Source: Spirochaetia bacterium (GTDB lineage: Bacteria; Spirochaetota; Spirochaetia; DSM-2461). Taken from it: DNA of 64,000 bases. The position numbers were made by a program, and so were the translations under genes. The notes under the pieces were generated by a model, which was not told where the DNA came from, did no database searches, and was given only the letters and a program-made list of their open reading frames with translations. Location of the stretch: assembly GCA_963666985.2 (NCBI GenBank), contig CAXXIA010000002.1:1920001-1984000 (forward strand), in the 5' to 3' direction. Positions 1 to 19,703 of this stretch are shown here, in pieces; within the stretch, counting starts at the first letter, position 1; each line of letters opens with the position of its first letter.

Positions 1-103
1 TAGTAAACTGTTAAGTGAATTAGAGTTCATATTAAGTCCATTAGAATCACGTCCTGTGATTCTAATGCATTTTTTATTGGCTCTTGGCTGGATTTCATCG
101 TAA

Positions 104-233
104 AACAGATGTTATGAGGTTCCGGCTGGCTATCGCCAACCTTCACCCAAATTGGCTTTTGTCATGTTGTTTGCGTTGGCAAACAACACGCCAATCCTTC
201 GGAACAGCCAACTTCTCATAACATCGGGCCGTT
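104..233 (+). repeat. attC-like repeat R0 (subtype B)
   Basis: AAC-A-GATGTTATGAG ... CTCATAACATC-GGGCC-GTT; same subtype as 6866-7013. Confidence 0.85.
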
Positions 234-302
234 ATTCGAAAAAATCTTTAACGGTAGAAAATCAATAACAGAAAGTAAGAATGCAATCGTATTACACAAG
301 GC

Positions 303-1040
303 TTAAGCGAGAATCCCAGGAATGATTAATATAAAAACAAGAAGATTTCCTATACCGTGGATTATTATCCCAATCCAAGTATTTTGATGCTTCTGTACTA
401 AATATGGAACTGCTAAGGATACTGGAATCAAAGAGATAAACGACCAAGGCATGAACATATGTACTAATAAATTCCACAATATCCCATTTACAAGCCATGC
501 CCACTTTCCAAATACTTTTTCCTGTAGTGGTAACGCATATCCTCTCCAAAGGAGTTCTTCCGCCCCGATATTGACTATTAACCATCCCAGCCAAAAGCCG
601 ACAATCCACCATTGGTCAGCTAAAGGAACCCCGAAAAAAGTTGTAAGTCCATCTGCGATTTGCAGTCCTGGATGGAAAAGTTCTGGTGTGAATTCTGGGA
701 CATGAAAAAAAGAATAGTTCATTAAGAAATGTCGAGTTGGCGCAAGACCCAGCTCAAGAGTCTGAACGCCAAGAAAACCAATAATAATCCAGAGCCAAGT
801 TTTACCCGATATCTTTCCAAATCTAAATCTGCTTATGAAATTTATATTTCTTTGTTTGTTGGATACAAAACATGTCAAGATAATAAACAATATCAATAAA
901 ATCGGAATCCATAGTGATAGGGAATAGCTGATGATTAATGGCCATCCTATTTTTGTAAGGTAGGGAACCAGAACTCTTGCGCCTAGAAACATAAGAATTC
1001 CAGGAATTCCGAAGAACACAAGAGACTGAATCAGATTCAT
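303..1040 (-). CDS. CPBP (CAAX/Abi) family intramembrane glutamic endopeptidase; cassette gene, inverted
   Basis: EELLWRG (EExxxR) motif, HxxxN (HGIGN), multiple TM segments. Start set at MNLIQ; the ORF is open to 1112. Confidence 0.85.
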   Translation of the reverse strand: MNLIQSLVFFGIPGILMFLGARVLVPYLTKIGWPLIISYSLSLWIPILLILFIILTCFVSNKQRNINFISRFRFGKISGKTWLWIIIGFLGVQTLELGLAPTRHFLMNYSFFHVPEFTPELFHPGLQIADGLTTFFGVPLADQWWIVGFWLGWLIVNIGAEELLWRGYALPLQEKVFGKWAWLVNGILWNLLVHMFMPWSFISLIPVSLAVPYLVQKHQNTWIGIIIHGIGNLLVFILIIPGILA

Positions 1041-1197
1041 TTTTCTTGAATTACAAAAAATAGAAAAGATGTTCATAAGAAGATGGTTACATGATTTAGC
1101 GGTAGAACTCAAGTTTTTAAATATTTTGCATGTGGTATATTTTTAATGTGACATAAGTAAAAGTTGGTTTTGAATAGATTTAACGATTTCTTCGAAT

Positions 1198-1395
1198 AAC
1201 AGCTGTTGATGCGCTCCGGCTGAAAATGAGATTTTCAGCCTTCGGGGCTTCGCCCAAATTTGCCTCTGTCATAGATTTTGCGAAAGGCCCGTGGCTATGA
1301 TACGATATCTTCAGTAAAAGGTTAGTGGTGTTATGATCGCAAAATCTCCGCCAGTCGCTTCGCGAGCGGCAAACTTCGCATACCAGCGGGCCGTT
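1198..1395 (+). repeat. attC-like repeat R1 (subtype A1)
   Basis: AAC-AGCTGTTGATGCG ... ACTTCGCATACCAGC-GGGCC-GTT. Confidence 0.9.
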
Positions 1396-1646
1396 TAGTG
1401 AAAAAACAGGAATATCATACAAGCCTCGCCATCCATGGCTCGGCTCTTGTTTCTTTCAATGAAGAAGGAACGCCGTGTAGTGAAAGAGTTTCTGAATCTA
1501 GAAAGGTTATTCTTAAATTCCCTCGAAGGAGAAAATAGATTAAAAAAAACCCTTAATCTATGCAGCAAGAACGATTGGCAATTTAGGAAATAGAATGTTC
1601 TTCAATATAGTATTAACTAAGAGCTGAAATACTAGTAATAAGGAGA

Positions 1647-2348
1647 ATGGTTATGACCGTTTCAAAAATCAGATACTGGGCTATGAAACGTAAACAAGAG
1701 GATCGAAAAGCAAATTTGCTATCTCGTAAAGCTCTATTTGGTTCCATCGTTTTCGGTATTACAACATTTGGTAGAGACGAACACAAGAGATCAATAAAAA
1801 TATTCAGGCCAAAGAATATTAATCAATTGCTTATAAGTGACATAACGCTCTTTGAACTGTCTTGCTATGCAATGATGCGAATTGAACAGTGGCTAGACAG
1901 GAAGGCAAGTCAGGAAGTGGATCAAACGGAAACCCCCTTAGACCTGCAAAAGACCGATGAAGAGATTACTGACCTTGTTGATGAAATCTATTCCAAATGG
2001 GAAAAGTTAGGAAAAAGTATACACTACGAGTTCATAGAACTGTATACGGATATATTTCAATCAAATCAGATTAAAGATATCTTTCAGGCAAGATTTGAAG
2101 AATATCGAAGAATGGTTGTCGCTTTAGAAATCACAGATACTGAGCAATATCACAAAGCAATCTCAACATTGTCCAGGATGTCAAATCAATACCTTCCAGT
2201 CTCACAGTTCAACTATGAGAAACTGCCTGTAATGCTCGGGTCCGCTTTAGAAGATATGGGATTCCGAGCGGAAATGACAGGATGGGAAATTCACATGATG
2301 CCGGCAATATTGAATACAATAGAAAAAGCTTCTCATTTTCTCATGTAA
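1647..2348 (+). CDS. Hypothetical protein (cassette gene)
   Basis: 233-aa ORF with AAGGAG just upstream; sole long ORF between R1 and R2. Confidence 0.75.
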   Translation: MVMTVSKIRYWAMKRKQEDRKANLLSRKALFGSIVFGITTFGRDEHKRSIKIFRPKNINQLLISDITLFELSCYAMMRIEQWLDRKASQEVDQTETPLDLQKTDEEITDLVDEIYSKWEKLGKSIHYEFIELYTDIFQSNQIKDIFQARFEEYRRMVVALEITDTEQYHKAISTLSRMSNQYLPVSQFNYEKLPVMLGSALEDMGFRAEMTGWEIHMMPAILNTIEKASHFLM

Positions 2349-2362
2349 TGAAACCTAGTATC

Positions 2363-2391
2363 CATTGGTAGCACGTCGTGTGCTACCAATG
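2363..2391 (+). terminator. Perfect 12-bp hairpin after the cassette gene (possible terminator)
   Basis: CATTGGTAGCAC-GTCGT-GTGCTACCAATG; no U-tract. Confidence 0.4.
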
Positions 2392-2428
2392 AAATCGAAA
2401 ATTGATTCAATGACCTGTTTCTTCACTA

Positions 2429-2619
2429 AACAGCTGTTGATGCGCTCCGGCGCCAGGGCGCCTTCGGGGCTTCGCCCAAATTTGCCTCTGTCATAGATTT
2501 TGCGGAAGGCTGGCGACTATGGTAGGATGACTTTCAGTAAATGGCTAGTTTTGTTCTGATAAGCAAAATCTCCGCCAGTCGCTGCGCGAACGGCAAACTT
2601 CGCATACCAGCGGACCGTT
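2429..2619 (+). repeat. attC-like repeat R2 (subtype A1)
   Basis: Same conserved ends; GGACC spacer before GTT. Confidence 0.9.
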
Positions 2620-2696
2620 AATTGAAATGGCGAAAAATCTCACCTCGCCGTCCTGGCTCGGTAGTAGTAAAATGTATAGAAAACGATTGAAAGGAT

Positions 2697-3566
2697 TTGT
2701 ACAATAACGTGAAAATACTCTCTACAAGAAAGACCTCTGCACTAATCGAGGAAATTGTCACAGAGTCAAAAAATTTTGTGCTCATTGTCAGTCCATACTT
2801 AAAAATATCGGACTCGTTGTACGAGCGTCTGGTTAGAAAACTAAATTTAGGAATCAGAGTTGTTTTACTTTTTGGCAAAGTCGACTCCAATTTTAGTCAG
2901 TATCAAAAACTTCGAGACCATAACAAGTCATCAATATTTTTTCTAGACAAACTACATGCAAAGATCTACGCAAACGAGGACATAGTTCTTGTTAGCAGTA
3001 TGAATTTACATTCATATTCAGAAATCAACAACTGGGAAATCGGTTTGCAAGAGGATAGCTCATCTTCTGAATATAAAAATATATTTAATGAAGTACTCTT
3101 GATGCTAAAAGCATCTACGTACAAATTTGGTGATAAAGATTATTCAATCATCGATTTGTCAAATGGGGCTCATGAATTTATAGGGATTCTCCAAGAAACA
3201 ATTAAAACTATTGATTTTCGTGTTATAGAAATACAAACCGGATGGGATGATGAAAAGTCCTACACCTTCAAAGGTACTTACCAACCAAAACAAGAAATTT
3301 CGATGATATTCAATTTCAACCATTTGGCGATTTCTAGTGACAGTGAAGATGACCTGCGGAGTATTTGTGAAACCATTGAGTCAAAGGGCTGCAAATCAGG
3401 TTTGAGATGCTTCCAAAAGAGCTATGAGAGGGAGCTAGCGATTTATCCACCTGATGGATTCAACGCACGTCGTGATAACATGGAGATAAAAGAATATCGC
3501 GCTATGTGGATTTCAATATTGGAAGACATTGAAAAGGTGCTCTGCGACAGCCTACAGGCTTCATAG
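2697..3566 (+). CDS. Phospholipase-D (HKD) superfamily nuclease-domain protein (cassette gene)
   Basis: IVSPY, LHAKIY and SSMNL...NWEIG motifs typical of PLD-like nuclease domains. True start may be GTG 2709. Confidence 0.8.
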   Translation: MYNNVKILSTRKTSALIEEIVTESKNFVLIVSPYLKISDSLYERLVRKLNLGIRVVLLFGKVDSNFSQYQKLRDHNKSSIFFLDKLHAKIYANEDIVLVSSMNLHSYSEINNWEIGLQEDSSSSEYKNIFNEVLLMLKASTYKFGDKDYSIIDLSNGAHEFIGILQETIKTIDFRVIEIQTGWDDEKSYTFKGTYQPKQEISMIFNFNHLAISSDSEDDLRSICETIESKGCKSGLRCFQKSYERELAIYPPDGFNARRDNMEIKEYRAMWISILEDIEKVLCDSLQAS

Positions 3567-3633
3567 ATAGTAGTCTCGCGAACATCGTGTTCGCGAGATA
3601 GGTTTAAGACTTTCGGATCTCGCCACTTCACTT

Positions 3634-3838
3634 AACAGCTGTTGATGCGCTCCGGCCGCTAAAGGTGTTTAGCGGCCTGCGGGGCTCCGCCCAAATTTCG
3701 CTTTGGCCATGGTTCTTGCAGATGCGTTTGTGAAAGTGGTGTGATAAGTTGAAGAGCGTACGGGCTTTCTTTTAAAGTGCAAGAACGCATGCCAACCGGC
3801 TTCGCCGGACGCGAAACTTCGCATACCAGCGGGCCGTT
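3634..3838 (+). repeat. attC-like repeat R3 (subtype A2)
   Basis: Conserved ends; internal GGCCGCTAAA/TTTAGCGGCC hairpin. Confidence 0.9.
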
Positions 3839-4554
3839 AGGTGAAATCAAAAGATTCATATTTTTAGGATTAACTATAAATGACATCTGAACACAAAGAA
3901 TTTATAAAGCGATCTATAAAAGTATTGCAGCATGATGAACGAATAATGGGTCTTGCTGTTGCCGGTTCTTTCATTACTAATGCAATGGATGAATTTTCTG
4001 ATATCGATTTTGTTATTGCCGTTGATTCAAAATATTACAATGAAATCTTAGATAAGAGAATTGAAATCGCTAAGAGTTTAGGACATTTGCTTTCTGCATT
4101 TACGGGAGAACATGTTGGAGAACCCCGATTGCTTATCTGCCTGTATAACAATCCCTTGATTCATGTTGATTTAAAATTCGTTTCGATTGATGAGATTGCA
4201 TATAGAGTTGAAGATTTCAAAGTATTGTGGGAACGTGACAATTGTATATCCGATAAACTTAAAGAAGAATCAGCACAATTTCCTAATCCAGATCTTCAAT
4301 GGATTGAAGATAGATTTTGGATTTGGATCCATTATGGAGCAGGAAAGATTGGTCGCGGTGAGATTTTTGAGACGATCGAATTTATTTCTTATTTGCGTCA
4401 GAACGTGATAGGCCCGTTAATCTTGATGAAGAAGGGAAAACGCCCCCAAGGTGTACGGAAGATTGAATTCGATGCGCCAGAATATTTGGAACGATTGAAG
4501 TCAACAATAGCGATTCATGAAAAGTGAACCACACCGGGATTCCCGGAGGCTGTT

Positions 4555-5466
4555 TTAGTTGAGTCCGGCAGCTACTGCCGAACATTCTTCCTGTTCATAA
4601 TACATCGATTCAAACTTCGCCGGGGGGATATCTCCAAGCGGCTCCATGATTCGGCGGTTGTTGTACCAGTCCACCCAGTCCAGGGTTTCCAATTCAACCT
4701 GTTCTATTCTCTGCCATGAGCTCCTCCGGTGGATGACTTCGGCTTTGTAGAGACCGTTGATAGTCTCAGCCATTGCGTTATCGTACGAGTCTCCTTTGCT
4801 CCCAACCGAAGGCTCGATACCGGCCTCTGTCAATCGATCCGAATATCGAAACGAAAGATACTGCCTTCCACGATCACTGTGATGAATCAGACCGTCGACT
4901 ACTTCCCTGGCCCAAAGCGCCTGATTGAGCGCATCAAGAGTAAAGTCGGTTTTCATCGACCGGCTAGCTCGCCAACCGACGATCATCCGGGAGAAGACAT
5001 CAATGATGAAGGCAACATAGACGAAGCCCTGCCAGGTGGAAACGTAGGTGAAATCCGCAACCCAAAGCCGATTCGGCTTGGAAGCTGTGAAATCTCTGTT
5101 AACCAGATCCTCGGGTCTTTCATCTTTCGGTGACGGGAAGGTGGTCTTGGTTCCCTTGCCCCGAATGACGCCTCTGAGACCCATAGAACGCATAAGACGT
5201 TCGACGGTACACCTGGCTACATGGAGATGCTTCTCATTTCTAAGAACCTTCCAGACTTTCCTGGCGCCGTAGACTCTACGGTTCTCATCCCATATCTCCT
5301 GAATCTCATTTTTAAGAAACCGGTCTCGACGTGTTCGATCAGGTTCGAGTTCAGGATCAGCTTCTCTTGCTTTTTGTAGATGATAGGTCGACGGAGCAAT
5401 CGGCAGTGATTTGCAGATAGGCTCGACTCCATATTCTTCCCGGTTCTCATTGATAAAACCGACCAT
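4555..5466 (-). CDS. IS3 transposase OrfB (DDE)
   Basis: WVADFTYV, HHSDRGRQY, DNAMAETING motifs. Confidence 0.95.
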   Translation of the reverse strand: MVGFINENREEYGVEPICKSLPIAPSTYHLQKAREADPELEPDRTRRDRFLKNEIQEIWDENRRVYGARKVWKVLRNEKHLHVARCTVERLMRSMGLRGVIRGKGTKTTFPSPKDERPEDLVNRDFTASKPNRLWVADFTYVSTWQGFVYVAFIIDVFSRMIVGWRASRSMKTDFTLDALNQALWAREVVDGLIHHSDRGRQYLSFRYSDRLTEAGIEPSVGSKGDSYDNAMAETINGLYKAEVIHRRSSWQRIEQVELETLDWVDWYNNRRIMEPLGDIPPAKFESMYYEQEECSAVAAGLN

Positions 5467-5786
5467 CAGTTCTTTCGGCGGTCGAGCTCCGCCTGGGCAA
5501 AATACGCTGAGGCCTTTCGAAGAATTTCGTTGGCAGTACGAAGTTCTCGATTCTCCTTTTCCAGCTCTTTAAGACGCTTACGCTCTTCACTGGTTAGACC
5601 ATCCCGCTGCCCTTCATCGATTTCTGCCTGCCGAACCCATTTCCGGAGTGTTTCGGGTGTACAGCCGATCTTAGCGGATATTGAACAAATCGCCGACCAC
5701 TGAGATTCGCTGTCCTTCTGCTTCTCAAACACCATCCGGACAGATTGTTCCCGGACTTCCTTGGGGTACCTTGTTTGCTTTCCCAT
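5466..5786 (-). CDS. IS3 transposase OrfA
   Basis: HTH plus leucine-zipper (ELEKENRELRTANEIL); stop overlaps the orfB start. Confidence 0.95.
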   Translation of the reverse strand: MGKQTRYPKEVREQSVRMVFEKQKDSESQWSAICSISAKIGCTPETLRKWVRQAEIDEGQRDGLTSEERKRLKELEKENRELRTANEILRKASAYFAQAELDRRKN

Positions 5787-6017
5787 GACACAATCCTCTC
5801 AAGTAATTGTGCCTCCGGTAAAGCCGGGGTGGTTCAAAGAGATCTTGTTATGAAGTTTTGAAGAATATTGTTTTGCTTTATAGGGAACTACGAGAAGAAC
5901 TCCAAAATCTAGATTTCAATTACAATTCAGAGACAGAAGAAGTAGCCATGGCTTATTTGGATGATATCTATAAGAGGTGTGTATAAGAGAATGAGAAAGT
6001 ATTGCTTGATTTCACCT

Positions 6018-6225
6018 AACAGCTGTTGATGCGCTCCGGCCGCTAAAGGTGTTTAGCGGCCTTCGGGGCTTCGCCCAAATTTCGTTTTGGCATGGCATCT
6101 TGCAGATGTGTTTTCAAAAGTGATGTGATAAGCTAAAAAAACAAACAGGCTTTCTGCTAAAAGCAAGAGCGCATGCCAACCGGCTTTCAGCCGGACACGA
6201 AACATTCGCATAACAGCGGGCCGTT
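6018..6225 (+). repeat. attC-like repeat R4 (subtype A2)
   Basis: Conserved ends and internal stems. Confidence 0.9.
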
Positions 6226-6252
6226 TGGTGAAATTCGTATAAGGAATAAAGA

Positions 6253-6849
6253 ATGATAGCAAGTGTAATATTGTCTCATCCATATCCTAAAAGTTTTAAT
6301 CATGCAATTTTCAAAACAGTGATACGGGCATTAAAAGAGAAACAAGTAAAAGTATATAACCATGATCTTTATGAAGAAGGCTTTAATCCTATTCTCACAA
6401 AAGAAGAATTAGGGTCTGATCAATCAACTGATAAATTAGTCAATCAGTATGCAAAAGAGTTAGTCGAATCAGACTCTTTATTTTTTATACATCCAAATTG
6501 GTGGGGACAACCACCAGCAATTATGAAAGGATATATCGATAGAGTTATTCGTCCTCCTTATGCTTATGATTTCCCAAAAGATGACTCAGGTGGTGGATTA
6601 CCTTTAGAAAAATTGAATGGAAAATATGGAATAGTTTATAATACTGGGAACACCGAGAGCAAACGAGAAAAAAATTACTTTGGTGATCCATTAGAAAATA
6701 TCTGGGAAAAATGTGTTTTTGGTTTTTTAGGAATTAAAAAATATAAAAGAAGACTCTTTTGTGTAATTGCTGATAGCACAGAAGAAGAAAGGCTAGAGTG
6801 GCTAAAGAAAATTGAAGAAGATATAGATCTAGTTTTGGAAGAGAAATAA
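6253..6849 (+). CDS. NAD(P)H-dependent quinone oxidoreductase (flavodoxin-2 fold); cassette gene
   Basis: SHP..SFN, HPNWWGQPPAIMKGYIDRV motifs. Confidence 0.9.
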   Translation: MIASVILSHPYPKSFNHAIFKTVIRALKEKQVKVYNHDLYEEGFNPILTKEELGSDQSTDKLVNQYAKELVESDSLFFIHPNWWGQPPAIMKGYIDRVIRPPYAYDFPKDDSGGGLPLEKLNGKYGIVYNTGNTESKREKNYFGDPLENIWEKCVFGFLGIKKYKRRLFCVIADSTEEERLEWLKKIEEDIDLVLEEK

Positions 6850-6865
6850 AAGCCGAACTTCACCA

Positions 6866-7013
6866 AACAGATGTTATGAGGTTCCGGCTGGCTGACGCCA
6901 CCCTTCACCCAAATTAGCCTTTTGAAAAACTTCGGAGAAATTGCAAAGCAATTTTCCTCAGCTTTTCAAGCCCACAAGGGGCTCAGGCTAACTTCTCATA
7001 ACATCGGAACGTT
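6866..7013 (+). repeat. attC-like repeat R5 (subtype B)
   Basis: AAC-A-GATGTTATGAG ... CTCATAACATC-GGAAC-GTT. Confidence 0.85.
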
Positions 7014-7036
7014 AAACGCCACTCGAACTTTGTCGT

Positions 7037-7170
7037 TGGAGAGACCAGGACATCCTTTACATTTTAGGTACAGGACATCGTTTACACTAAACAAGCTTGA
7101 ACGAAGCATTTGAGCCCATCAACAGAAGGGGTAAAGGCATAGTTTTTCCAGTCAATTTCTCCTAATCTCG
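7037..7170 (-). mobile_element. Remnant end of an IS481-family element
   Basis: Close but diverged match to 13552-13685 (ACCAGGACATCCTTTACATTTTAGGT.CAGGACATCGTTTACACTAAACAAG...), including the transposase C-terminal codons. Confidence 0.85.
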
Positions 7171-7306
7171 AACAGTAAGAAAAATTGCTAGTGTGGTGAA
7201 CTTGAAATAGAAATCACCTTATAAATAGCCCTTCAAAAGGGGCTCATAACCTGTACTGCTATAATTAGGCAAAATTGATTTATGAATCAAATATGATTGT
7301 ACGACA

Positions 7307-7993
7307 TTAGGAAATAGGCGTCTTGGAATGATCGGCCACTTTTTCAGCTGTCATGTCAAGAACTCCATAAATTGCCTCTTGCCGATATTCGTCGGTCAAT
7401 ATTTGTTCTTTTTCTTTTGCCTCTTTACCAAAATTCATGAATGGGTATTTCAACTGAACTGTATATGTCTCATAAAGGCTTGCTACCGATTGCCTATTGT
7501 GAACGTCTACTATGTTGCCTCTCGATTTCCCAAACATATTTTCAGGTGTATTATTTCCAATCTTGTTCTGTTCCCAGTATTCTTGAATATATGCTTCACA
7601 AAGGATTACGTAATCAGCAGACAACTTTGAACCTATATCAACCACAATGGCCAATTCATTTTCTTCTAATTGATATGAATTTTCTACATCCGGCATATCT
7701 TCAGTAATGTATATTGGATACTCGTTAATAGTAGACTTAAGTTCTGCATAGCTAATAATTTCTATTAAGGTTGCTTCTGCAATTTTCTCCGCTAGGTATT
7801 TTGCGTTTCTCTCATGATTGCTGTCGTCAAGTGGTGAAACAACAAGCAATCTTTTGCCTGTGAAGTCAATTTCGTCTAAGAATTTCGTTTGATTTCTTAG
7901 TCGACCAACAGCCCCAAGTGTTGAGCAACCAACGAAAATTACAGGTATAATAGCAAAAAAAAGAACAAAGCGCTTTTTCATTTTAGTCTCCAT
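7307..7993 (-). CDS. Putative lipoprotein; cassette gene, inverted
   Basis: MKKRFVLFFAIIPVIFVG-C signal peptide/lipobox. Confidence 0.75.
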   Translation of the reverse strand: METKMKKRFVLFFAIIPVIFVGCSTLGAVGRLRNQTKFLDEIDFTGKRLLVVSPLDDSNHERNAKYLAEKIAEATLIEIISYAELKSTINEYPIYITEDMPDVENSYQLEENELAIVVDIGSKLSADYVILCEAYIQEYWEQNKIGNNTPENMFGKSRGNIVDVHNRQSVASLYETYTVQLKYPFMNFGKEAKEKEQILTDEYRQEAIYGVLDMTAEKVADHSKTPIS

Positions 7994-8096
7994 AAGATAT
8001 CGAAGATAATAGATATAAACTTATTAAAAACGAATTCATTTGAATGTCAACCACATTTTTCTGTTGGGATAATTTATAGAACTTCGAGCGGCGTTT

Positions 8097-8294
8097 AACA
8101 GCTGTTGATGCGCTCCGGCTGATAACGAGGTTATCAGCCTCCGGGCTCCGCCAAATTCGTCTTTGTCAGAGATTTTGCGTGAGTCTAACGTGTATGGTAA
8201 AATGCTTTTCAGTAAACGGTTGAGTTTGTTCTGAGAGGCAAAATCTCCGCCAACCGCTACGAGGACGACGAACTTCGCATACCAGCGGACCGTT
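8097..8294 (+). repeat. attC-like repeat R6 (subtype A1)
   Basis: Conserved ends; GATTTTGC/GCAAAATC inner stem. Confidence 0.9.
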
Positions 8295-9272
8295 AGTCGC
8301 AAATACAATGATATACATTTCTAGCATGGTCGTACCACACAATATCTCGAGGATTGCAGATATCGATGAATGTCATTTCGAGAATCCTCCAATGATTGTT
8401 TTCGACACAAACATTTGCATAGATTTATACAAACTGTGGTGCAACCCAAGGCTAATGCGCAATGAACAGCACAAACAGTTTATGGAATTGGTCGATCTGT
8501 GCACAAAAATATACAAGAATGGTTGGCTATTTTTTCCCCATTTTGGAATAGAAGAAGCTTCTTTCAGTGAATTTTCAAATCGAGGAGAGTCTGACAAAGA
8601 GCAGCATATGCACATGGCCTTATTGAACTTGCTAGGTAGTGATCTGCAAAGCTTTCTAGCACATATCAATTCAACTTTCAGTAGCATTGAGCACTATACT
8701 CGTCGTGTAGATTCAAAATCATATATACGGCGAATAAGGAATGATATTATTTTTAGTGATCTTTTACCTTTGAAATACTGCTCAATGATGAAATTGTTTA
8801 TTCTTTGTAACGACATAGATAGTTACAAAGAGCGTTTGTTTGAATTCTTTAATTATCTACTGAATAACATAAATTGTGTTGACGTAGGATCAATCATCAC
8901 AGCGACATTTCTTACTAGCAGAAAGAAGATGAAAATGCTTTTCCATCGGCTACAAAACAGCTCGAGCGCAGGTTTAAGGAGTATTTTAAATTCTGCGATT
9001 GATCTTACGTTTATTGAGCTCTCAAGTCGTATTTACCTTGAGGGCCTAACACCAATATTTTGCTCACAGAATAAACTTCTTATCGAAATAGAGAATGCTA
9101 CAAAAGTGCAAATTTTTCAAAATGGTATTCCTGCAAAAGGTATTTATGCAGATCGGCTTCCGGAAAACGAGGTCGTTATGGAGTTTATAGAGTTTATGAA
9201 AAAGTCGCTAGAAAAAAGGGATTCGTATATAAAACACTTCAATAAGCATCATGTTTGGGCAGAAATAGCTAA

Positions 9273-10296
9273 GGCGGATTGAAATTCCTAATGCACGAAA
9301 ATAGAAGTGCAAGGAGTTTCAATGAGTTACCGCAGAATAACATTTCAAGAACGAATGTCTATCTTCCAAATGCGTTATGTTGAGAATCTGAAAATATCAG
9401 AAATCGCATATCGTTCAGGACGCAATCCATCGAGTATTTCAAGAGAATTGCAAAAAGGAGATGATTCAGGAAGTTATAATCCCTTTCTTGCTGAATACTT
9501 GTCTTTAAAGCAACGAAGATATCAATGTCCAAAATTAAAAATTAGTTCAGAAGTCTGGAAAGAAATAAAATCAAAATTGGAACTTCGATGGTCACCTGAT
9601 GAAATTGCTCATTGGTGGAATCAACTATATCCTGAGAAAAGCATGAGTGGAAGAACCATCTATAATTATGTCCATTTCCATATGAGGGGTGAACTAAAGA
9701 AACTGGCGTTAAATGATCTTCGCCGACGTGGAAAGTCTCCCAAAAAGCCAAAGAATGACGGTAGAGGCAAGTTAAAAGACATAACCTTGATCGATGAGAG
9801 ACCGCCGGAAGTAGAAGGCCGAGAAGTTCCAGGCTATTGGGAGGGAGACTTAATCATAGGAAAAGACCATAAGTCGGCTATCTGTGTCATTGTGGAAAGG
9901 CAAACACGATTTATCCAAATGGATCTTCTTCTCAAATACGATGCAGCAACTGTTCGAAAAACAATTGAGAAACGATTTAAGCGGATAGAACCTCATCTAA
10001 GAAAGACGTTGACCTTGGATCAAGGTAAGGAAAATAGTGAGCACAAGCGGTTGGCTGAAAAAGCTGAAATCGATGTTTTCTTTTGTCACCCCCATTCGCC
10101 ATGGGAAAAAGCATCATGCGAAAATACAAATGGTTTGATCCGTGATATGCTTTATGAAATTGATGATTTTCGGAATATCGACCAATATTATGTGGGTCGA
10201 ATAGCCCGATTGTTAAATGAAAGGCCAAGAAAAACTTTGGAGTATAAAACGCCGAAGCAGGCATTGGCTGAATTGCGTTAGGAATCTCAATCCGCC
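9273..10296 (+). mobile_element. IS30-family insertion sequence, 1024 bp
   Basis: IRs GGCGGATTGAAATTCCTAATGCA / TGCGTTAGGAATCTCAATCCGCC; TAA direct repeats on both flanks. Confidence 0.92.
9322..10281 (+). CDS. IS30 transposase
   Basis: GYWEGDLIIG, TLDQGKE, PHSPWEKASCENTNGLIR, LNERPRKTL motifs. Confidence 0.95.
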   Translation: MSYRRITFQERMSIFQMRYVENLKISEIAYRSGRNPSSISRELQKGDDSGSYNPFLAEYLSLKQRRYQCPKLKISSEVWKEIKSKLELRWSPDEIAHWWNQLYPEKSMSGRTIYNYVHFHMRGELKKLALNDLRRRGKSPKKPKNDGRGKLKDITLIDERPPEVEGREVPGYWEGDLIIGKDHKSAICVIVERQTRFIQMDLLLKYDAATVRKTIEKRFKRIEPHLRKTLTLDQGKENSEHKRLAEKAEIDVFFCHPHSPWEKASCENTNGLIRDMLYEIDDFRNIDQYYVGRIARLLNERPRKTLEYKTPKQALAELR

Positions 10297-10336
10297 TAAT
10301 CTAGAAAAGGAAATAGTCAAACGTGTATCTGCGACT

Positions 10337-10542
10337 AACAGCTGTTGATGCGCTCCGGCGTCAACTAGCGTTGCCGCCTCCGGGCCTACGGCCAAATTTC
10401 GCTTTGGACATGGCTCTTGCAGATGCAGACTCAGAAGTGATGTGATACAGTCAAAGGCGAACAAAGCATTGCTGAAGCCGTTGCAAGAGCGCATGCCAAC
10501 CGGCTTTGCCGGACGCGAAACTTCGCATAACAGCGGGCCGTT
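10337..10542 (+). repeat. attC-like repeat R7 (subtype A2)
   Basis: Conserved ends and internal stems. Confidence 0.9.
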
Positions 10543-10682
10543 TTGTGCATTTCGAGAATTCTCATAGACGGAATATTTTAGATTTCTCCAATAAGATCTT
10601 TATTGTTTATCAAATCCCCTCAGCTTGACATTTATAGTATGACGTTTAAATGTAGACGCATTAACAAACACAGGAGAATTCT

Positions 10683-12056
10683 GTGAACGGATTCATCATA
10701 TTATTGATTCTTTACGCAATCTTAGGGACTGTAATCAGTATCTTCGTTATGCGGCGAAAGCCATCTCAAGAAGATTACTTTATTGGGGGACGGGCCGTTG
10801 GATGGATCGTCTCGGCGCTCACCTACGCCGCTACAACATACTCGGCTTTTATGATGGTTGGCCTTGTCGGTCTATCATATAACACAGGCATTGGCGCCTT
10901 CATTTTTGAGACAGTCTATCTTCTTGCCACTTTGATCTTATTGTCAGTTTACGGGCAAAAGATTTGGACGATGGGAAAAGAAAAAGGCATGGTCTCACCG
11001 ATGGAGCTTTTTACAAACCGCTATGGACCTATTACCGGCGGAGTTGGAGCGATAATCGCTTTTATTGCGCTTATTCCTTATACGTCGGTGCAAGTGATAG
11101 GACTTGCCCTTATTCTCCAGAACTATGGCATAACCTTCAATCAAGGAATCATCATTGCCGTCGGCATTATTGCAGTCTGGACATTTCTTGGAGGTCTACG
11201 AGGCGTTGTGTTAACAGATGCTATTCAGGGATTTCTGATGATGGCCATAGCCATTGCAGCGGTTATCTGGACGGGAAGTCGGTATAAAGGGGTTGAACTT
11301 TCGACGTTCCCGAACAATGTTTGGACACCAATATTCTTTATCAATCTGACTCTCCCCTGGGCGTTTTTTGCTCTCACGAATCCGCAAGTGGTTCAAAGGC
11401 TTTTCATCATTAAGGACAAGCGTGACTTTCGGAAGATGCTCATTCTTTTTGGTGTGTTTGGCCTGGTTTTTACTACAATCGTAACGGCAATTGGAGTCTC
11501 GGCGAAGTTTGGTACGCTTCAAGGAATCCTCCCGGTAGTCTCCGATCAAGATGGTGTTATTGTTGCAGTGATGTCGCAAATGAGAAATTGGCTGGCAATT
11601 CCTTTAGCCCTGAGCATTATTTTTGCATCAGTATCAACGGCCAACTCAATAATCCTCACGTTATCCTCAATGATGACAAGGGATGTTTTTCGTCAAAAGA
11701 ACAATGTTTGGCTGGGCCGAGGTATCATCATCGGACTCGCAGTATTGGTAGGTCTTTTTTCCTTAACACGCCCAAACTATCTGGTGCAGCTTTCAGTCGC
11801 ATCGTCACGAATCTTGATGTGCTTTCTTCCCCTTATGTTTTCATTGTTTCACGGAAAGCGAGGAGGAGAGGTTACAGGCATTCTAACTCTTGTTGGTGGA
11901 GCAATATCAGCGATTCTTTTCGGTCTGATTGCATCTTCATACAGCTCGCTTCTTACTCTCGGAGCCGTAGTTTTGCTTTATTTAATCGGACTGGCTATTG
12001 AGAATGGATTCTTCTCTTGCAAGATTTTTCATCGGAAATCAAGAACTGAGACATAA
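10683..12056 (+). CDS. Sodium:solute symporter family transporter (PutP/PanF-like); cassette gene
   Basis: DYFIGGR, ATTYSA, GGLRGVVLTDAIQG, PQVVQR motifs; many TM helices; AGGAG RBS. Confidence 0.9.
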   Translation: MNGFIILLILYAILGTVISIFVMRRKPSQEDYFIGGRAVGWIVSALTYAATTYSAFMMVGLVGLSYNTGIGAFIFETVYLLATLILLSVYGQKIWTMGKEKGMVSPMELFTNRYGPITGGVGAIIAFIALIPYTSVQVIGLALILQNYGITFNQGIIIAVGIIAVWTFLGGLRGVVLTDAIQGFLMMAIAIAAVIWTGSRYKGVELSTFPNNVWTPIFFINLTLPWAFFALTNPQVVQRLFIIKDKRDFRKMLILFGVFGLVFTTIVTAIGVSAKFGTLQGILPVVSDQDGVIVAVMSQMRNWLAIPLALSIIFASVSTANSIILTLSSMMTRDVFRQKNNVWLGRGIIIGLAVLVGLFSLTRPNYLVQLSVASSRILMCFLPLMFSLFHGKRGGEVTGILTLVGGAISAILFGLIASSYSSLLTLGAVVLLYLIGLAIENGFFSCKIFHRKSRTET

Positions 12057-12116
12057 ACATGTGATTAGTTTGAATGGCCAAGACGGCGAATCATTTTGAA
12101 TAATAGAAATGCACAA

Positions 12117-12313
12117 AACAGCTGTTGATGCGCTTCGGCGGTAACGAGGTTACCGCCTCCGGGGCTTCGCCCAAATTTGCCTCTGTCACAGATTTTGCAT
12201 ATGTCTACCGCTGTGGTAATATAAATTGTAGTTATCGTTTGAGGTTGTGAAGAATCGCAAAATCTTCGCCAGTCGCTTCGCGAATGGCAAACTTCGCATA
12301 CCAGCAGAACGTT
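12117..12313 (+). repeat. attC-like repeat R8 (subtype A1)
   Basis: Conserved ends; AGAAC spacer. Confidence 0.9.
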
Positions 12314-12484
12314 TTACGAAAAACCTATAGAAACTTAATGTATAAAAATACCGTCATATACGTGAAATGAAAATTCATTGTCTTATCGGTCAATAACGCA
12401 TTAGATAACAAGTCATAGTAAGCATACTGTTAGTAAATACACATATAAGATTACTGTAAAAATAGAATAGGCAACTATCACCAT

Positions 12485-13198
12485 CTATATGTTTATTTTT
12501 GTTTCTAATATGGTATGGTCACTATAATTTTTAACCTTCCCATAATTCCAAGAAAATGTTTTTTCAACTGCAATTGATAGATCCTTGCTGACAAATATAT
12601 GATCATCTTGATAGTGATTTTCCTCTGACATATTGGCACCAAAAAAAGTCTGTGAATAAACGGGACAACACTCGTGAAAATGTAAACCAATTTTGTCAAA
12701 AATGTCACTAAAGAATCCATTTACCATAACCGTGTCAGCGTTGAAGTCTCCACCAATGATGAACCTACTTTTCGAACTAAGAACCGTTGCATTAAAAATG
12801 CTCTCAATGTGGCTTCTTATTGTATAGATACCGTCAGGAGATGTATTTGTATGTAGACTGCATAAGGTTATAGAAGTGCCATTATTGCTTTCGAATTCAA
12901 CGAAAACTTGTTTCCCTTTGTGTTTTTCAGAATCGATATATTTATCTGTAACATCCGAAATTGAGCCCGTTTTCAATATATTTTCACTAAAATATAAGCA
13001 TGTACCCCATTTTGGTAGCTCAGTTGTTTTGCAAGTCTCACTTTCATGAAAAATCGCCATTTCAGTAAATCTTTCAGGGACTACGGTTTCCTGAAGAAAT
13101 GCGACATCTGGACATACAGATGATGTTAAATAATCCCAAGCCTGGTCATTAGTTCCATTCTGTTGCCAATAGTTCATATTCCATGTGACAAGTTTCAT
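12485..13198 (-). CDS. Endonuclease/exonuclease/phosphatase (EEP) family protein; cassette gene, inverted
   Basis: TWN, LQE, GGDFN, DHIF, SDH motifs; GAGGAG RBS. Confidence 0.88.
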   Translation of the reverse strand: MKLVTWNMNYWQQNGTNDQAWDYLTSSVCPDVAFLQETVVPERFTEMAIFHESETCKTTELPKWGTCLYFSENILKTGSISDVTDKYIDSEKHKGKQVFVEFESNNGTSITLCSLHTNTSPDGIYTIRSHIESIFNATVLSSKSRFIIGGDFNADTVMVNGFFSDIFDKIGLHFHECCPVYSQTFFGANMSEENHYQDDHIFVSKDLSIAVEKTFSWNYGKVKNYSDHTILETKINI

Positions 13199-13325
13199 TA
13201 AATACTCCTCTTAAGGAGTTTATCATTGCTCATAGAGATTACGAGAATAAATGAGATGATTGAAGAGAAAGGATAAAGATTAAAATCTTTATTAGGGCAG
13301 ATGCGAGTCAATTAGTTTTTCGTAA

Positions 13326-13530
13326 AACAGCTGTTGATGCGCTCCGGCCGCTAAAAGTGTTTATCGGCCTTCGGGGCTCCGCCCAAATTTCGCTTTGGCC
13401 ATGGTTCTTGCAGATGCGTTCCTGGAAGTTGTGTGATAGGCTCAAATGCGAACAGGTTTTCCGTTGAAGTGCAAGAACGCATGCCAACCGGCTACGCCGG
13501 CCGCGAAACTTCGCATACCAGCGGAACGTT
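13326..13530 (+). repeat. attC-like repeat R9 (subtype A2)
   Basis: Conserved ends and internal stems. Confidence 0.9.
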
Positions 13531-13551
13531 ATATGTAATGCCCGATTTTCA

Positions 13552-14891
13552 GTGAGCGACCAGGACATCCTTTACATTTTAGGTCCAGGACATCGTTTAC
13601 ACTAAACAAGTTTAAACGAAGCATTTGAACCCATCAACAGAGGGTATAAATGCAAATGTTTTCCGATCAATTTCTCCTAATCTTAAATTGTCAAACCAGA
13701 CGGTAAAAGTCTCATCTTCATTTTCTCGAAGACCAACTTGGTATCCAACAAAGACATAACTGACGAAAATCCTGTGCCGGTCTATGGTCACCGCCCCACG
13801 ATTATTAATCATTCTCACCTCATATCCGGGTGGATAAATCACCTGTGGAATCTGAGAAGGGAAGGGCCGTTTGGACTTTGTGTAAACACTTCCGGGAGTC
13901 TGCATTTTAAGAGCTTCATGAGGTCGAACACTGTTGAACTGATTTCTCCAGACATCAAAATGCGCCTGATGTTCAGAGAGGTTACCCTGAATCTGTCCCT
14001 GTAATTCCCGTTTGATATCGGCATGCATTCTCTCATGCCCCCCGTTCTCACAAGGTCGTCCCGGAGTGATGCGATCAAGTTCGATTCCCAAGGCCAACCA
14101 CCAAACACTTAAGCGTGTGAGCCCCAGCAGGCCCTTCATGGAGGCAAAGGGAGGTCCGTTGTCGGACCTCATGACTCTGGGCATTCCATAGATGGAAAAG
14201 AGCTTCTCAAACTCGGTTCTAACTTCTTGTGTGTCAGCCTTTTGGAGTGCTTTGATGGTGAAGATGTATTTGGAAAACTCATCCCGAACGGTCAAAGGTT
14301 CACATCGTTCTCCCTCGGGAGTATACCACCATCCTTTGAAGTCCACGGTCCAGATGTCATTCGGCTGCTTGGCTTGAAGACGGCTCTGGATTCGCTGAGA
14401 TTTATTCTGCCGGCGCTTCTTTCGGTGCACCACCAGACCGGCTTTATCCAGGATGCGTTTCACGGTGGTCAGACTTGGACTCTCCTGGTGGGGATGTGTC
14501 TTCTGGTAGATATCGAGGATTTTCTTTGGCCCCCATTTGGTGTGTCGTGATTTGATTCGGACGATGTCGCAGATGACATTCTCCGGTGTCTGGTTAGGGC
14601 AGATACGAGGTTTCCTGGTTCTTTCATTCAGACCGGCGAGCCCTTCCTGAATAAACCGGTTCTTCCATTTAAGGCCTGTTGGCCGGGAGATCCCGTACTC
14701 GGCACAGAGGTCTTTCATACAGACATGGGGATCCATGGCCTTGAGGGCGAACTCGAATTTGACATCCATAATATTGGTCTCCTTCCACGGCATAACCAGC
14801 ACCTCGATAAGGGAAAGTGCTGATCATTTTAGTCCTTGTCGTGTAAAGGATGTCCTGGTACTCTCGTGTAAACGATGTCGTGGACCCGTAC
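13552..14891 (-). mobile_element. IS481-family insertion sequence
   Basis: Both ends carry two copies of CCA(G/C)GACATC(C/G)TTTACA in inverted orientation. Exact termini uncertain; no target duplication seen. Confidence 0.85.
13612..14793 (-). CDS. IS481-family transposase
   Basis: MPWKET start, WTVDFKG, SDNGPPF, NGGHERMH, RPHEAL motifs. Confidence 0.92.
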   Translation of the reverse strand: MPWKETNIMDVKFEFALKAMDPHVCMKDLCAEYGISRPTGLKWKNRFIQEGLAGLNERTRKPRICPNQTPENVICDIVRIKSRHTKWGPKKILDIYQKTHPHQESPSLTTVKRILDKAGLVVHRKKRRQNKSQRIQSRLQAKQPNDIWTVDFKGWWYTPEGERCEPLTVRDEFSKYIFTIKALQKADTQEVRTEFEKLFSIYGMPRVMRSDNGPPFASMKGLLGLTRLSVWWLALGIELDRITPGRPCENGGHERMHADIKRELQGQIQGNLSEHQAHFDVWRNQFNSVRPHEALKMQTPGSVYTKSKRPFPSQIPQVIYPPGYEVRMINNRGAVTIDRHRIFVSYVFVGYQVGLRENEDETFTVWFDNLRLGEIDRKTFAFIPSVDGFKCFV

Positions 14892-15713
14892 CGAATAAAA
14901 AGGGGATTCTTTTTAAGGTGTTTTTTTCTGTGGCAGCCTCATTCCCTTCATTTGAACAAGTAACAGAAACAGAACCCCTTTGAGTGGTCAGATCTTTTTA
15001 ACAGGCCTTCCTTCTCTTTGAACAAAACAGGTCGTTTTGATGCGGCTTTCTCCTCACCCCCTTCGCCTTTGAGATCATCTTCAAGAAAGAAACCAAAAGC
15101 ATCGGAATAAAACTCGCTTCGGGATCAGAAGCACTTAGTGATAAGGCGGTCGGTTCGGGAGAACTTGTGTCGTGAAGGTTTATGGTTTTTAACGATTATG
15201 GGAATCGCTCATGAGAAAATCCTTATCCGTTGATGGTTATCGCTTCGGGAAATGAGGCGCTCATGCTTTGATAGGTTCGCGAGAAAAGGGGTGGTAGCCT
15301 GAGAAGAATGAAGGGATGGAGATGAGAAGAATGGAGATTGTTTTCTCCGTGGTTTTGCCTTTGAGAATAAGGCTGAATGCTTTGGGGAATACCGGTGTAG
15401 AAGGAGAAGACGAACATTCGGATTTACAGAATCCGTCCTGAGAGAAAGAGGTCGGGAAAGGCGAATTGCATCGGATGATGGCCTGAGTAAAGTGATGAGG
15501 CGATGAAAGGGAGAATGGGGGTCAGTATGAGAGAATGGATAGCCATTTCGATGAATGAGTAAAAAGCGGAAGAGGGAAGTCTGTAAAAGGATGAATGAAG
15601 AAAAGATGAGAAGGAGAAGGGCAAGAAGAATCGAAACAAAGGCTCAGGTAAAACGGCGAGGATGGGTGAGGAGAAGGAGATGTCTTTATAGATGCGTCGT
15701 CCGAACTTCCTTT

Positions 15714-15843
15714 AACAGCTGTTGATGCGCGTCGGCCGCTAAAAGTGTTTAGCGGCCTTGGGCCGAGCGAAGGGAAACTATGAGTTTTATGATTTTTAGT
15801 AAAAGGGAAGAAACAAATTGGTTCGGCTCGGCCAAATTTCGCT
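15714..15843 (+). repeat. Truncated/degenerate attC-like repeat R10 (left arm only)
   Basis: AACAGCTGTTGATGCGC..GGCCGCTAAAAGTGTTTAGCGGCC and GGCCAAATTTCGCT are present, with an insertion between them; the CGCATACCAGC..GTT arm is missing. Confidence 0.8.
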
Positions 15844-15998
15844 GATGGTCGGTTTCGTATTGACGAATATTCGTGCTTTCAGTAACTTGCCACAAGTCAA
15901 GGATATACGGGGACTTCCCTGCCTTCTCTAAATCTTCATGAACGGGACTGGATGCGGTTGTGCGTGCAATTGGATTCAGTTTCCGGGGAGTTTTAGTG

Positions 15999-17159
15999 AT
16001 GCGATATAGGGAACCTTTTACAGTGTATCCCCGGCGTTTACCGTCGGGTCGAATCGTCTATTACTACCAGACATATGATGATCAGGATCGGCGGACGGCG
16101 CCTCGGAGTACGGGCAAGACTTCGAAGGGTGCGGCGCGGCGGTTTTGCTATGACTTGATGCGCACCGATTCGCTTATTCCGCTGAAAGGGCAGGAGCAGT
16201 TCTTCGCGGATTATGCGAAGGGCTGGTGGGAATGGGATACTTGCGAGTATCTGGCTTATCGGCGAACGCGGCGGCAGATCAGCCGGAGGTCTGCTTATAC
16301 GGCCCGGGGGAATTTGAAGAATCATATTCTTCCATTCTTTGCTAGGAAGCGTTTGAAGGAAATCACCCGGTACTCGATTGAACGCTGGATTGTCACCTTG
16401 CAGGATAAGGGCCTGAAGAACGCAACGATTAATGTGTGTCTGTCGAATCTTAGCGTCATGCTCGGCTTCGCGGTTCAGAAGGATCTTCTGAAAGACAATC
16501 CTGCGAAGAAGGTCACCCAACTGAAGAACACATCCAGGAGACGAGACATTCTTTCAAGCAAAGAGGTGCAGGAGCTCTTCAACGAGAATTCGATTGAGGA
16601 TCTCTGGGGACAGCGGATGTACTATGTCGCGAACCTCCTGGCGGCCTGTACAGGGATGCGTATCGGTGAGATTGTCGGCGTCCGCGGTTCAAGTCTCAAG
16701 GAGGGGTACATTTTGGTGGATAAGCAATACCGACCGCCCTATGGGCTTATCAATACCAAGACGAACGACATTCGGATCATTCCGCTTCCGGACGTACTGA
16801 TGGACGAGCTCCAATTGCTTCGCGAGAGTGCCAAGGTTGGAGACGGTTATCTCTTTTCGATCACTTCGGGGGAGAAGCCGGTGATGGGACAGACGATCAA
16901 TGAGAAGCTGCGCCGGGCTATGGTGAAGATCGGGATATCCGAAGAGCAGCAGGAGGAGCGGTATATTCCCTTCCACTCCTGGCGGCACTACTTCAACACG
17001 ATCTTGCGTAGCAACAACATCTCCGACGGCAAAGTGCAGAGCCTGACCGGTCACAAGAACAAGGTGATGACAGAGCACTATACCCACTTCAAACCGGAGG
17101 ATTACGCGGACGTAAGAGCTGTGCAGAACAAGATTATATCGTTTTCAAGAGCTGCCTAA
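15999..17159 (+). CDS. Tyrosine recombinase / phage-type integrase (not IntI)
   Basis: TGMRIGE (R), TKT (K), FHSWRH, LTGH, TEHY catalytic set intact. N-terminal arm-like and core-binding domains present; no IntI-type insertion before YLF. Confidence 0.92.
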   Translation: MRYREPFTVYPRRLPSGRIVYYYQTYDDQDRRTAPRSTGKTSKGAARRFCYDLMRTDSLIPLKGQEQFFADYAKGWWEWDTCEYLAYRRTRRQISRRSAYTARGNLKNHILPFFARKRLKEITRYSIERWIVTLQDKGLKNATINVCLSNLSVMLGFAVQKDLLKDNPAKKVTQLKNTSRRRDILSSKEVQELFNENSIEDLWGQRMYYVANLLAACTGMRIGEIVGVRGSSLKEGYILVDKQYRPPYGLINTKTNDIRIIPLPDVLMDELQLLRESAKVGDGYLFSITSGEKPVMGQTINEKLRRAMVKIGISEEQQEERYIPFHSWRHYFNTILRSNNISDGKVQSLTGHKNKVMTEHYTHFKPEDYADVRAVQNKIISFSRAA

Positions 17160-17623
17160 AACCGGGTGTCCGCTCTCGACGGATCCCGACCTGACCGGGG
17201 GCCCAAACCGAACCGGGCCGCCTCCCCGGCTGGGCGGGGGGGAATGGATTTACCCGTTACGCCAAATCTCCCGGCGCCGGCTATCCATTGCGATTTCGAC
17301 TTCAAGGAGTTCTTTTCCCGCCGACCGATACCGGGGATGTTCCGGCGGATAGAGTTCCCAGGTTTTCGGATGGCGGAACCCGTTGCACAGGATGAACCGC
17401 TTCCTTGCCCACAACTCATACAAACCTCTCATTTCATACCCTCCGAATGAGTGAAAAAATCTTCCATTGGGAAGAGAGCCGCCCCTTCCAACGGCTTGAC
17501 TGCCAATTCCTGGTCCCGGGAAGGTTCGGTCAAGGCCGCCGAAGGCGCCCGGAGGGCTCGGCCTTGACGGGTTCTTCCCGGGGCAGGACACTGCAAAAAG
17601 CCGGAGGAAGGAGCTACAACTGT

Positions 17624-17917
17624 ATGGGGTATCAGTTCGAAGAGAAGGAAGCCGAACTTTTTCGACGCATCGATGAGGTTTTATTCTATCTCTGGGATCC
17701 CATCGGAGTATCGACAGACATCAGTCCCAGGGACGAATACCGATCTTATCTTCCCAAGGTCTTCAACCTGGCGAATTCGGAAGGCGCCGAACAAGAACTT
17801 TCAGATTACCTCTACTCTGTTGAAACGAGTGACATCGGCGTACGCGGAAGCCGGCAGCGCTGCGATGAAATTGCCTCTTTGGTGACAAAGCCCGCAAGGA
17901 CATATCGAGAGAGTTAG
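17624..17917 (+). CDS. Small hypothetical protein (WDPIGV...DEY motif)
   Basis: 97 aa after an AGGAG; recognisable conserved-hypothetical motif. Confidence 0.65.
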   Translation: MGYQFEEKEAELFRRIDEVLFYLWDPIGVSTDISPRDEYRSYLPKVFNLANSEGAEQELSDYLYSVETSDIGVRGSRQRCDEIASLVTKPARTYRES

Positions 17918-19659: not shown

Positions 19660-19703
19660 CATGAGCACGGTGAAGAAGTCTGTGAGGTTGCATGGGACGG
19701 GTT

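Follow-up and report, generated by a model that had tools for sequence, protein, structure and literature searches.

Sedentary chromosomal integrons, of which that of VchIntIA (PDB 2a3v) is an example, combine a divergent tyrosine recombinase gene and an attI site with a long array of directly repeated cassettes, bounded by attC sites of the R''-L''-terminal region-L'-R' type. Complementary R boxes of 7 bp, recombination of the bottom strand and a general excess of G:T pairs on that strand are known, going by the accessible parts of PMC5027507, PMC2727003 and PMC5371416, the first two of which also treat attC strand selection. The I2 insertion is held to define the integrase IntI (PMC4889954, 10.1101/2022.02.06.479319 and PMC7790495, as far as their accessible text goes), and in the accepted account this insertion gave integrases the capacity for single-strand recombination, with direct proof being blocked because its deletion kills IntI1 (PMC7790495, same limit). 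Integron finders demand an IntI-specific profile (PMC4889954, in the part accessible), so that arrays served by an enzyme without I2 would be missed or filed as orphans. Here we describe such an array in a Spirochaetia bacterium (source genome G000, contig C2), the last part of which lies in the window analysed (the whole stretch of 64,000 nt, G000:C2:1920001-1984000, window coordinates counting from 1), and in which each cassette carries its own terminal inverted repeat. With a probability of about 0.7, as judged from sequence, we propose that these repeats are the outer (R) arms of an attC-like site used by an integron-type tyrosine recombinase that lacks the IntI insertion, and that the two ends of a cassette together rebuild the half-site of this enzyme.

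The locus shares with sedentary chromosomal integrons the divergent recombinase gene, the (here putative) attI, the long direct array and the order of the site elements, as well as the conserved AAC/GTT, R arms that are complementary in the circle, a bottom-strand G after the AAC, a more stable bottom strand and, in most sites here, an unpaired L'' base. Unlike in those integrons, the recombinase is 42 residues shorter, the R arms measure 14-16 bp instead of 7-12 bp, a G:T is fixed at position 11, the spacers are 4 and 8 nt (a loop offset of 4), positions 4-7 are not RRRY and the cores are 123-263 nt long. The Treponema chromosomal integrons (PMC3607928, accessible part) and the canonical arrays from the same phylum also have large arrays with conserved attC sites, but the integrases of those canonical arrays carry the insertion, their cassette ends pair over a median of 8 bp and A/C at position 11 is absent. 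In the length and fold of its recombinase, and in a putative attI whose 6-bp centre lies between two duplex arms, the system resembles Xer/dif, pdif and archaeal XerA (PDB 5hxy, 4a8e); in contrast to Xer/dif and pdif, there are direct repeats with long hairpins, arms specific to each cassette and a dedicated recombinase at the head of the array. A literature search covering titles and the beginnings of abstracts, with most subscription papers outside its coverage, retrieved no description of I2-less integrons, of a wobble at position 11, or of IS481 targeting of cassette arms.

The array consists of 88 directly repeated units, in one orientation throughout, at G000:C2:1778054-1935716 (3.2% of the genome), as delimited by a motif search that was blind to end pairing. 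The final eleven units, from the end of unit 78 to unit 88, are in the window. A unit's own ends paired, over positions 1-14, in 84 of the 88, the exceptions being units 49, 56, 61 and 88, which were left out of the pairing tallies. For nine window cassettes the initial annotation had listed end-pair tallies, all of which were reproduced, as was an A on the left facing a C on the right at position 11 in six of the nine. The features, in window coordinates, are as follows.

104..233, + strand: attC-like site of the short type (AAC ... GTT), closing unit 78
231..1200, + strand: body of cassette 79, arms 231-251 / 1180-1200 (19 of 21 positions paired), A/C at position 11
303-1112, - strand: CAAX-protease-like open reading frame (ORF) in cassette 79
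1201..1392, + strand: attC core with 4-nt spacer, L'' (one unpaired base), long branched terminal region, L' and 8-nt spacer
1393..2431, + strand: cassette 80, arm pairing over 18 bp (17 of 18), A/C at 11, ORF 1647-2348 without family
2432..2616, + strand: attC core
2617..3636, + strand: cassette 81, arms 15 of 17, A/C at 11, PLD-like ORF 2697-3566
3637..3835, + strand: attC core
3836..6020, + strand: cassette 82, arms 15 of 15, Watson-Crick at 11, nucleotidyltransferase-like ORF from 3880
about 4525-5836: IS3-type element within the nucleotidyltransferase-like ORF of cassette 82
6021..6222, + strand: attC core
6223..6868, + strand: cassette 83, arms 14 of 15, A/C at 11, flavodoxin-like ORF 6253-6849
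6869..7010, + strand: attC core, short type
7011..8099, + strand: cassette 84, arms 16 of 17, A/C at 11, ORF 7307-7993 (- strand)
7039-7168: 130-bp remnant of an IS481-like end in cassette 84
8100..8291, + strand: attC core
8292..10339, + strand: cassette 85, arms 15 of 16, A/C at 11, ORF 8308-9282
9266-9295 and 10274-10303: inverted repeats of an IS30 element in cassette 85
10340..10539, + strand: attC core
10540..12119, + strand: cassette 86, arms 14 of 14, Watson-Crick at 11, sodium:solute symporter ORF 10683-12056
12120..12310, + strand: attC core
12311..13328, + strand: cassette 87, arms 14 of 14, Watson-Crick at 11, exo/endonuclease-phosphatase ORF 12485-13198 (- strand)
13329..13527, + strand: attC core
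13528..15716, + strand: unit 88, a hybrid with unpaired ends (the left arm of one cassette, the IS481-like element, then the body of an 845-bp cassette that is present five times upstream)
13553..14892, - strand: IS481-like element, 1340 bp, transposase 13612-14802, 25 nt past the left-arm G
15714..15850, + strand: last attC-like site, incomplete (R'' and L'' only, with neither L' nor R' found), approximate right limit; the array ends here

Complementarity proved to be private to each cassette, as the annotation had stated, with own ends agreeing at 11.9 of 13 positions and foreign ends at 5.5, while the ends of array neighbours agreed at 5.6/13. The pairing does extend well past a 7-bp R box, with a median stem of 16 bp over all array units, although canonical cassettes too go beyond 7 bp, with stems of up to 8-12 bp. 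At positions 4-14 of the 84 self-paired units, leaving out position 11, pairs were Watson-Crick in 828 of 840 cells, with pairing declining from position 15 to 18, and positions 4-7, 9, 10 and 12-16 all vary and covary between the two ends. Position 11 has an A facing a C in 53 units and a Watson-Crick pair in 31, and no other pair; neither a top-strand wobble nor the reverse polarity was ever seen. An A/C on the top strand is a G:T on the bottom strand only. Of the 61 distinct end pairs left after removal of duplicates, 35 had A/C at position 11, as did 26 of 52 clusters; the wobble is optional in G000. Position 11 accounted for 26 of the 33 mismatches at positions 4-14 (binomial P ~2e-20, with the cassettes only partly independent). 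When right arms were shuffled among clusters, 23.8 pairs at position 11 that are neither Watson-Crick nor A/C were expected (minimum 11 in 20,000) and none was observed, so that the ends appear to be constrained as a pair, with the bottom-strand G:T as the one tolerated exception. Decay of C to T was considered as a source of the A/C pairs and rejected, as a right-arm C faces a left A in 35/37 cases at position 11 and in 2/117 at positions 5-9 and 12-14. The positional bias of the mismatches strengthened as the sample grew.

The cores between units (123-263 nt) have a 5' part of 4 nt plus an L''-like arm and a 3' part of an L'-like arm plus 8 nt, with both spacers present in 86/86 cores. The base after the AAC was A and the base before the GTT was C in all 86, which gives a second bottom-strand G:T. 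Position 4 was A or T and positions 5-7 were variable, and neither the canonical GTTRRRY box nor its spacer geometry was matched. The inner (L) stem is conserved, with a 1-by-5 internal loop and covarying bases (AGCT with AGC, AGAT with ATC); most sites have one unpaired L'' base after the GTT, which is lacking from most sites of the relatives, and the main L'' sequence is found in 74 of 86. The terminal repeats do not stand alone but belong to an attC-like site, as its R' and R'' arms, and the array is, like a canonical integron, direct and bounded by R''-L''-L'-R' hairpin sites with AAC/GTT.

When cassettes were circularised and folded in silico, a 14-bp outer stem closed with a mean pairing probability of 0.96 on the bottom strand and 0.88 on the top strand; for the site as it lies in the array, the outer-stem probabilities were 0.20 and 0.10, respectively. 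The bottom strand had the lower energy in 73 of 79 distinct sites. In 76 of the 79, the circle had a lower energy than the site within the array, by a mean of 11.8 kcal/mol. With the terminal region removed, the bottom strand was favoured in 60/61, by 3.4 kcal/mol with the wobble and by 2.6 kcal/mol without it, and hence the wobble is not the main source of the energy bias. The earlier proposal of an extended bottom-strand stem in the circularised cassette is supported; for the suggestion that this stem is a possible signature of how the cassettes recombine, the support is indirect.

The head of the array carries an intact, divergently oriented gene for a tyrosine recombinase of 277 aa (G000:C2:1777133-1777966, - strand), 87 bp from cassette 1 and 142 kb upstream of the window, with all the catalytic residues present (R133, K158, H222, R225, H248 and Y257). 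Between K..K.R and HxLRH it has 58 residues vs 100 in IntI, and these 42 fewer residues correspond to the missing IntI insertion. Its best sequence and fold match was VchIntIA, followed by archaeal XerA; it scored 220 bits against TIGR02249, below the cut-off of 265, and exceeded the XerA-type cut-off of NF040815. No protein of G000, a genome that is 93% complete, was above the TIGR02249 (IntI) cut-off. In a tree of 41 rows, which did not include the G465 and G515 proteins, canonical IntI formed one clade (support 100/100) and the G000 recombinase fell outside it, among short relatives; the root fork had a support of 91/85, and the short integrases may be either ancestral or reduced relative to IntI. 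The end pairing is strongly non-random and behaves like the outer stem of an integron attC, but on the IntI criterion the system falls outside the canonical integrons.

A putative attI was located as a half-site-like arm 4 nt upstream of the GTT of the first cassette (P = 0.002), forming two inverted arms around a 6-bp centre with a half-site consensus of about N-N-T-W-N-N-Y-G-M-A. An arm at 4 nt fitted a scoring matrix built from the G000 cassette ends in six of seven loci (G000, G033, G372, G022, G017 and G539; P = 0.0004-0.005 each). In the folded cassette site the two strands differ at the centre, with 6 nt on one and 10 on the other, so that the strand with the R' AAC has a 4-nt bulge. 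From the attI-like arm and the 6-nt centre of the folded site we infer that the ends pair because together they make one duplex half-site. The arms of Xer and Cre sites are 11-13 bp long.

As the exact attC motif was abundant in G000 only among 61 genomes, relatives were sought via the integrase. A search of genome contigs for related loci, with the single integrase as query, returned no match. The relatives examined come from 13 loci with an adjacent short integrase (in 10 genomes of the class and on 3 metagenome contigs), in which cassettes were selected solely on the inner stem and positions 4-7, with sets chosen by end pairing excluded from the counts. This gave 73 rows, 54 of which had a loop offset of 4 on both sides; the 19 without it at both flanks were dropped, being apparent chance matches and sites of G479, L112 and L130 with offsets of 2-3. 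Beside the short integrases, A/C at position 11 was found in 40 of 46 distinct cassettes, and 94 of the 104 sites flanking them had a loop offset of 4. In arrays of the same phylum with canonical IntI, the integrases of which carry the insertion, the median stem was 8 bp in 98 distinct cassettes, and A/C at position 11 occurred in 0/98. Going by their attC, these controls are probably Treponema. Canonical loci of other phyla, a small control with cassettes from 16 of 82 loci, yielded 25 distinct cassettes with a median stem of 10 bp, a maximum of 12 bp and A/C at position 11 in 0/25; the canonical detector tried loop offsets of 0-1 only, where canonical cassettes were found. Among the loci examined, stems of at least 14 bp, the fixed wobble and the 4/8 geometry go with the short enzyme. 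Separately, a cassette family of G539 (L218 and L219, 22732-37012 of the joined region) has a right arm with an extra base beside the wobble and no G at position 8, and the canonical-IntI cassettes of L086, L092, L094 and adjoining loci have a small GC-rich hairpin from left-end position 9, after an 8-bp paired box.

Repeated cassettes form seven families with 24 members, cassette 1 included, and their neighbours differ; from these changing contexts, the crossover lies after the spacer and before position 4. G372 and G465 share a 1977-bp unit with the same ends, and cassettes seem to move between lineages. Cassettes with G000-type attC sites were also seen in arrays of another family, in G393 (L220) and G372 (L210).

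The left arms of cassettes also adjoin an IS481-like insertion sequence (IS), of which G000 has 12 copies with a full left end, nine of them at 25-26 nt past the left-arm G and in a single orientation. Copies or remnants beside left arms lie at window positions 13553-14892 and 7039-7168 and in units 14, 23, 27, 37, 44, 49, 55 and 58 of G000:C2. For the three copies outside the array, two had a half-site-like sequence at 25 nt (P = 0.0001 and 0.017) and the third did not stand out (P = 0.26). The transposase scored 203 bits with the IS481 model (cut-off 224), with a weak match to the ISNCY model, and target duplications were 3-5 bp. Among 13 related copies listed from seven other genomes, the best six (48-53% identity, five genomes; L330-L334 and L338) lie directly next to a cassette arm, but in reverse orientation and with 28-29 nt between the terminal motif and the arm G; three of these were found by script and three by eye, the latter three on one shared arm, and the remaining seven copies do not show this arrangement. 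This suggests that the cassette arm is a recognised site in the chromosome, by recombinase or transposase. The oriented DDE element at a fixed distance from a tyrosine-recombinase arm recalls the ISAba32 subgroup of IS1202, which inserts beside Xer sites (10.1101/2022.12.17.520857, accessible part), but the present element differs in having an IS481-like transposase, in targeting cassette arms, in landing 25-26 nt from the crossover G and in making duplications of 3-5 bp. Units 49 and 88 (G000:C2:1865266-1870440 and window 13528-15716) are hybrids, with target duplications around the IS copy that do not match; most likely two IS copies recombined and the intervening cassettes were deleted. Other IS are present in units 56 and 61, where an internal site has been lost.

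In the mechanism that we propose, a cassette would leave as a circle by crossover within the C-G-T-T of its left end, which would join its own two ends. The bottom strand of the circle would fold into the R arm (14-16 bp), the G:T at the crossover, the 4-nt bulge and the L arm, and would so imitate the double-stranded attI, with two half-sites around a 6-bp centre. An enzyme without the I2 segment, which in IntI grips flipped-out bases, may need a full duplex half-site, and for this reason both ends of a cassette would stay complementary over the footprint. With a G:T at position 11, the strand destined for cleavage would retain a T there, whereas both the top-strand hairpin (with A.C) and the duplex R'' arm would be worse sites, and the pair could aid one-way insertion of cassettes; this role as a strand mark is inferred. 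Sites within the array pair foreign arms and would fold poorly, favouring storage over loss.

Several observations weigh against this reading. The wobble is absent from 26 of the 61 distinct end pairs of G000, among them 8 C and 7 T pairs, so a T at this position is not required; it is less fixed there (35/61) than in the relatives (40/46, kin not being independent), and 15 of 52 clusters have C or T pairs at position 11. Its state was unrelated to L-arm mismatch, spacer or attC type, and it contributes about 0.8 kcal/mol, with the bottom strand being favoured without it too. Pairing often reaches 18-24 bp, past the likely protein footprint, and canonical cassettes also pair over more than 7 bp (8/25 reach 12), so that longer pairing does not by itself go with the absence of I2. 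Some G539 cassettes lack the G at position 8 and have an extra arm base. The attI candidates were hand-picked, with six spacings tried for each, that of L118 fits a 5-nt and not a 4-nt spacer, and no sigma-70-type promoter match was found near the putative attI (positions 1900-2400 of L001 scanned). According to published work, deletion of I2 abolishes the function of IntI1 (PMC7790495).

The long pairing might instead provide folding stability only, closing a very long terminal region (120-260 nt), with the wobble as a general bottom-strand stabiliser that is not read by a protein. The enrichment of bottom-strand G:T in ordinary attC sites (PMC5027507, accessible part), the 11.8 kcal/mol gained in the circle and the many cassettes that pair past 14 bp all fit this explanation, but stem length is independent of core length (rho -0.04, n = 61) and of unit length, relatives with cores of 70-80 nt have equally long stems, and a single position with a single polarity and a consensus shared with a double-stranded attI would be left unexplained, so that we regard it as rather unlikely. 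It is improbable that the match arises as cassettes are formed, by copying of one end from the other (for example through hairpin-primed synthesis or an RNA intermediate), with the mispair as a scar: although private pairing that sometimes runs far past the footprint (end stems of 22-29 bp in units 6 and 28, and of 24 bp in G022) would be expected from copying, copying predicts perfect matches or scattered errors and not, across families, one type of mismatch at one site, and the sharp drop after positions 14-16, together with the consensus shared with attI, suits a protein site.

An enzyme without I2 that exceeds the XerA-type cut-off NF040815, and a putative attI that looks like an ordinary two-arm duplex site, could also point to Xer-like double-stranded recombination, in which the arms are duplex half-sites that favour, at position 11, A in the left arm and G in the right one, and no hairpin is formed. 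Such independent preferences cannot yield private complementarity at positions 4-14 or the lack of cross pairs of the A/T and A/G type at position 11, a duplex L'-R' centre would be 10 bp vs 6 bp at attI, and the inner stem covaries, all of which makes this quite improbable. Modules of the Xer/pdif kind (alternating inverted 28-bp sites without long hairpins, served by host XerC/D) were rejected, with the sites here being direct, folded and 130-270 nt long, as was a DDE transposon or miniature inverted-repeat transposable element, given 61 distinct end pairs and flanks that are constant attC halves and not duplications. Finally, the neighbouring recombinase might be a bystander of an orphan array that is served by a lost or trans-acting canonical IntI. 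Arrays without IntI are common (CALIN; PMC4889954, accessible part) and G000 is only 93% complete, but the same site geometry beside short integrases in 13 loci, unlike canonical IntI sites, and the half-site pair between the recombinase gene and cassette 1 leave this explanation with hardly any credibility. The reconstructed half-site of an I2-less recombinase is the reading we retain.

Contigs from two public sequencing runs (of one sample, possibly the source) span several window cassettes with zero differences, and the joints listed from these contigs are accounted for by other array copies. Among the 60 units of up to 1600 bp, the longest ORF was on the top strand in 31 and on the bottom strand in 14, with 15 having none of 90 aa. 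A 243-bp cassette without an ORF of more than 23 codons is present in eight copies (G000:C2:1797751-1797993 and seven others), the intact ones with a long attC of 255 nt, and may serve as a promoter or encode an RNA. Five intact copies, plus interrupted forms, were seen of a cassette of 845 bp whose end stem measures 22 bp (G000:C2:1784202-1785047 and copies; window 14893-15716). In the attC of unit 77 (G000:C2:1914743-1917200), L'' is interrupted by an element that is about 2.2 kb long and has a short duplication. Directly behind the truncated last attC are phage-type integrase and terminase genes (window 15960-19659), where an integrated element appears to cut the array end; the integrase (15960-17159) was rejected as the array recombinase, as it is downstream, far from IntI and beside terminase genes. 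An Rfam scan of window positions 1-20000 gave a single match, an IS3 ALIL pseudoknot, and PADLOC gave only weak matches, for two of nine cassette proteins.

We tentatively suggest, at somewhat less than even odds, that this array represents a second, widespread class of integrons near the pre-I2 state, which would recombine folded strands by means of a rebuilt Xer-like half-site, with the strand being picked by a positioned G:T and a 4-nt bulge instead of flipped-out bases, and with a dedicated group of IS481-like elements beside the half-site. A natural I2-less enzyme heading an array of 88 cassettes with rule-bound sites would make the question of I2 testable by a few substitutions, and in laboratory strains its simple site rules could suit engineered single-strand recombination.

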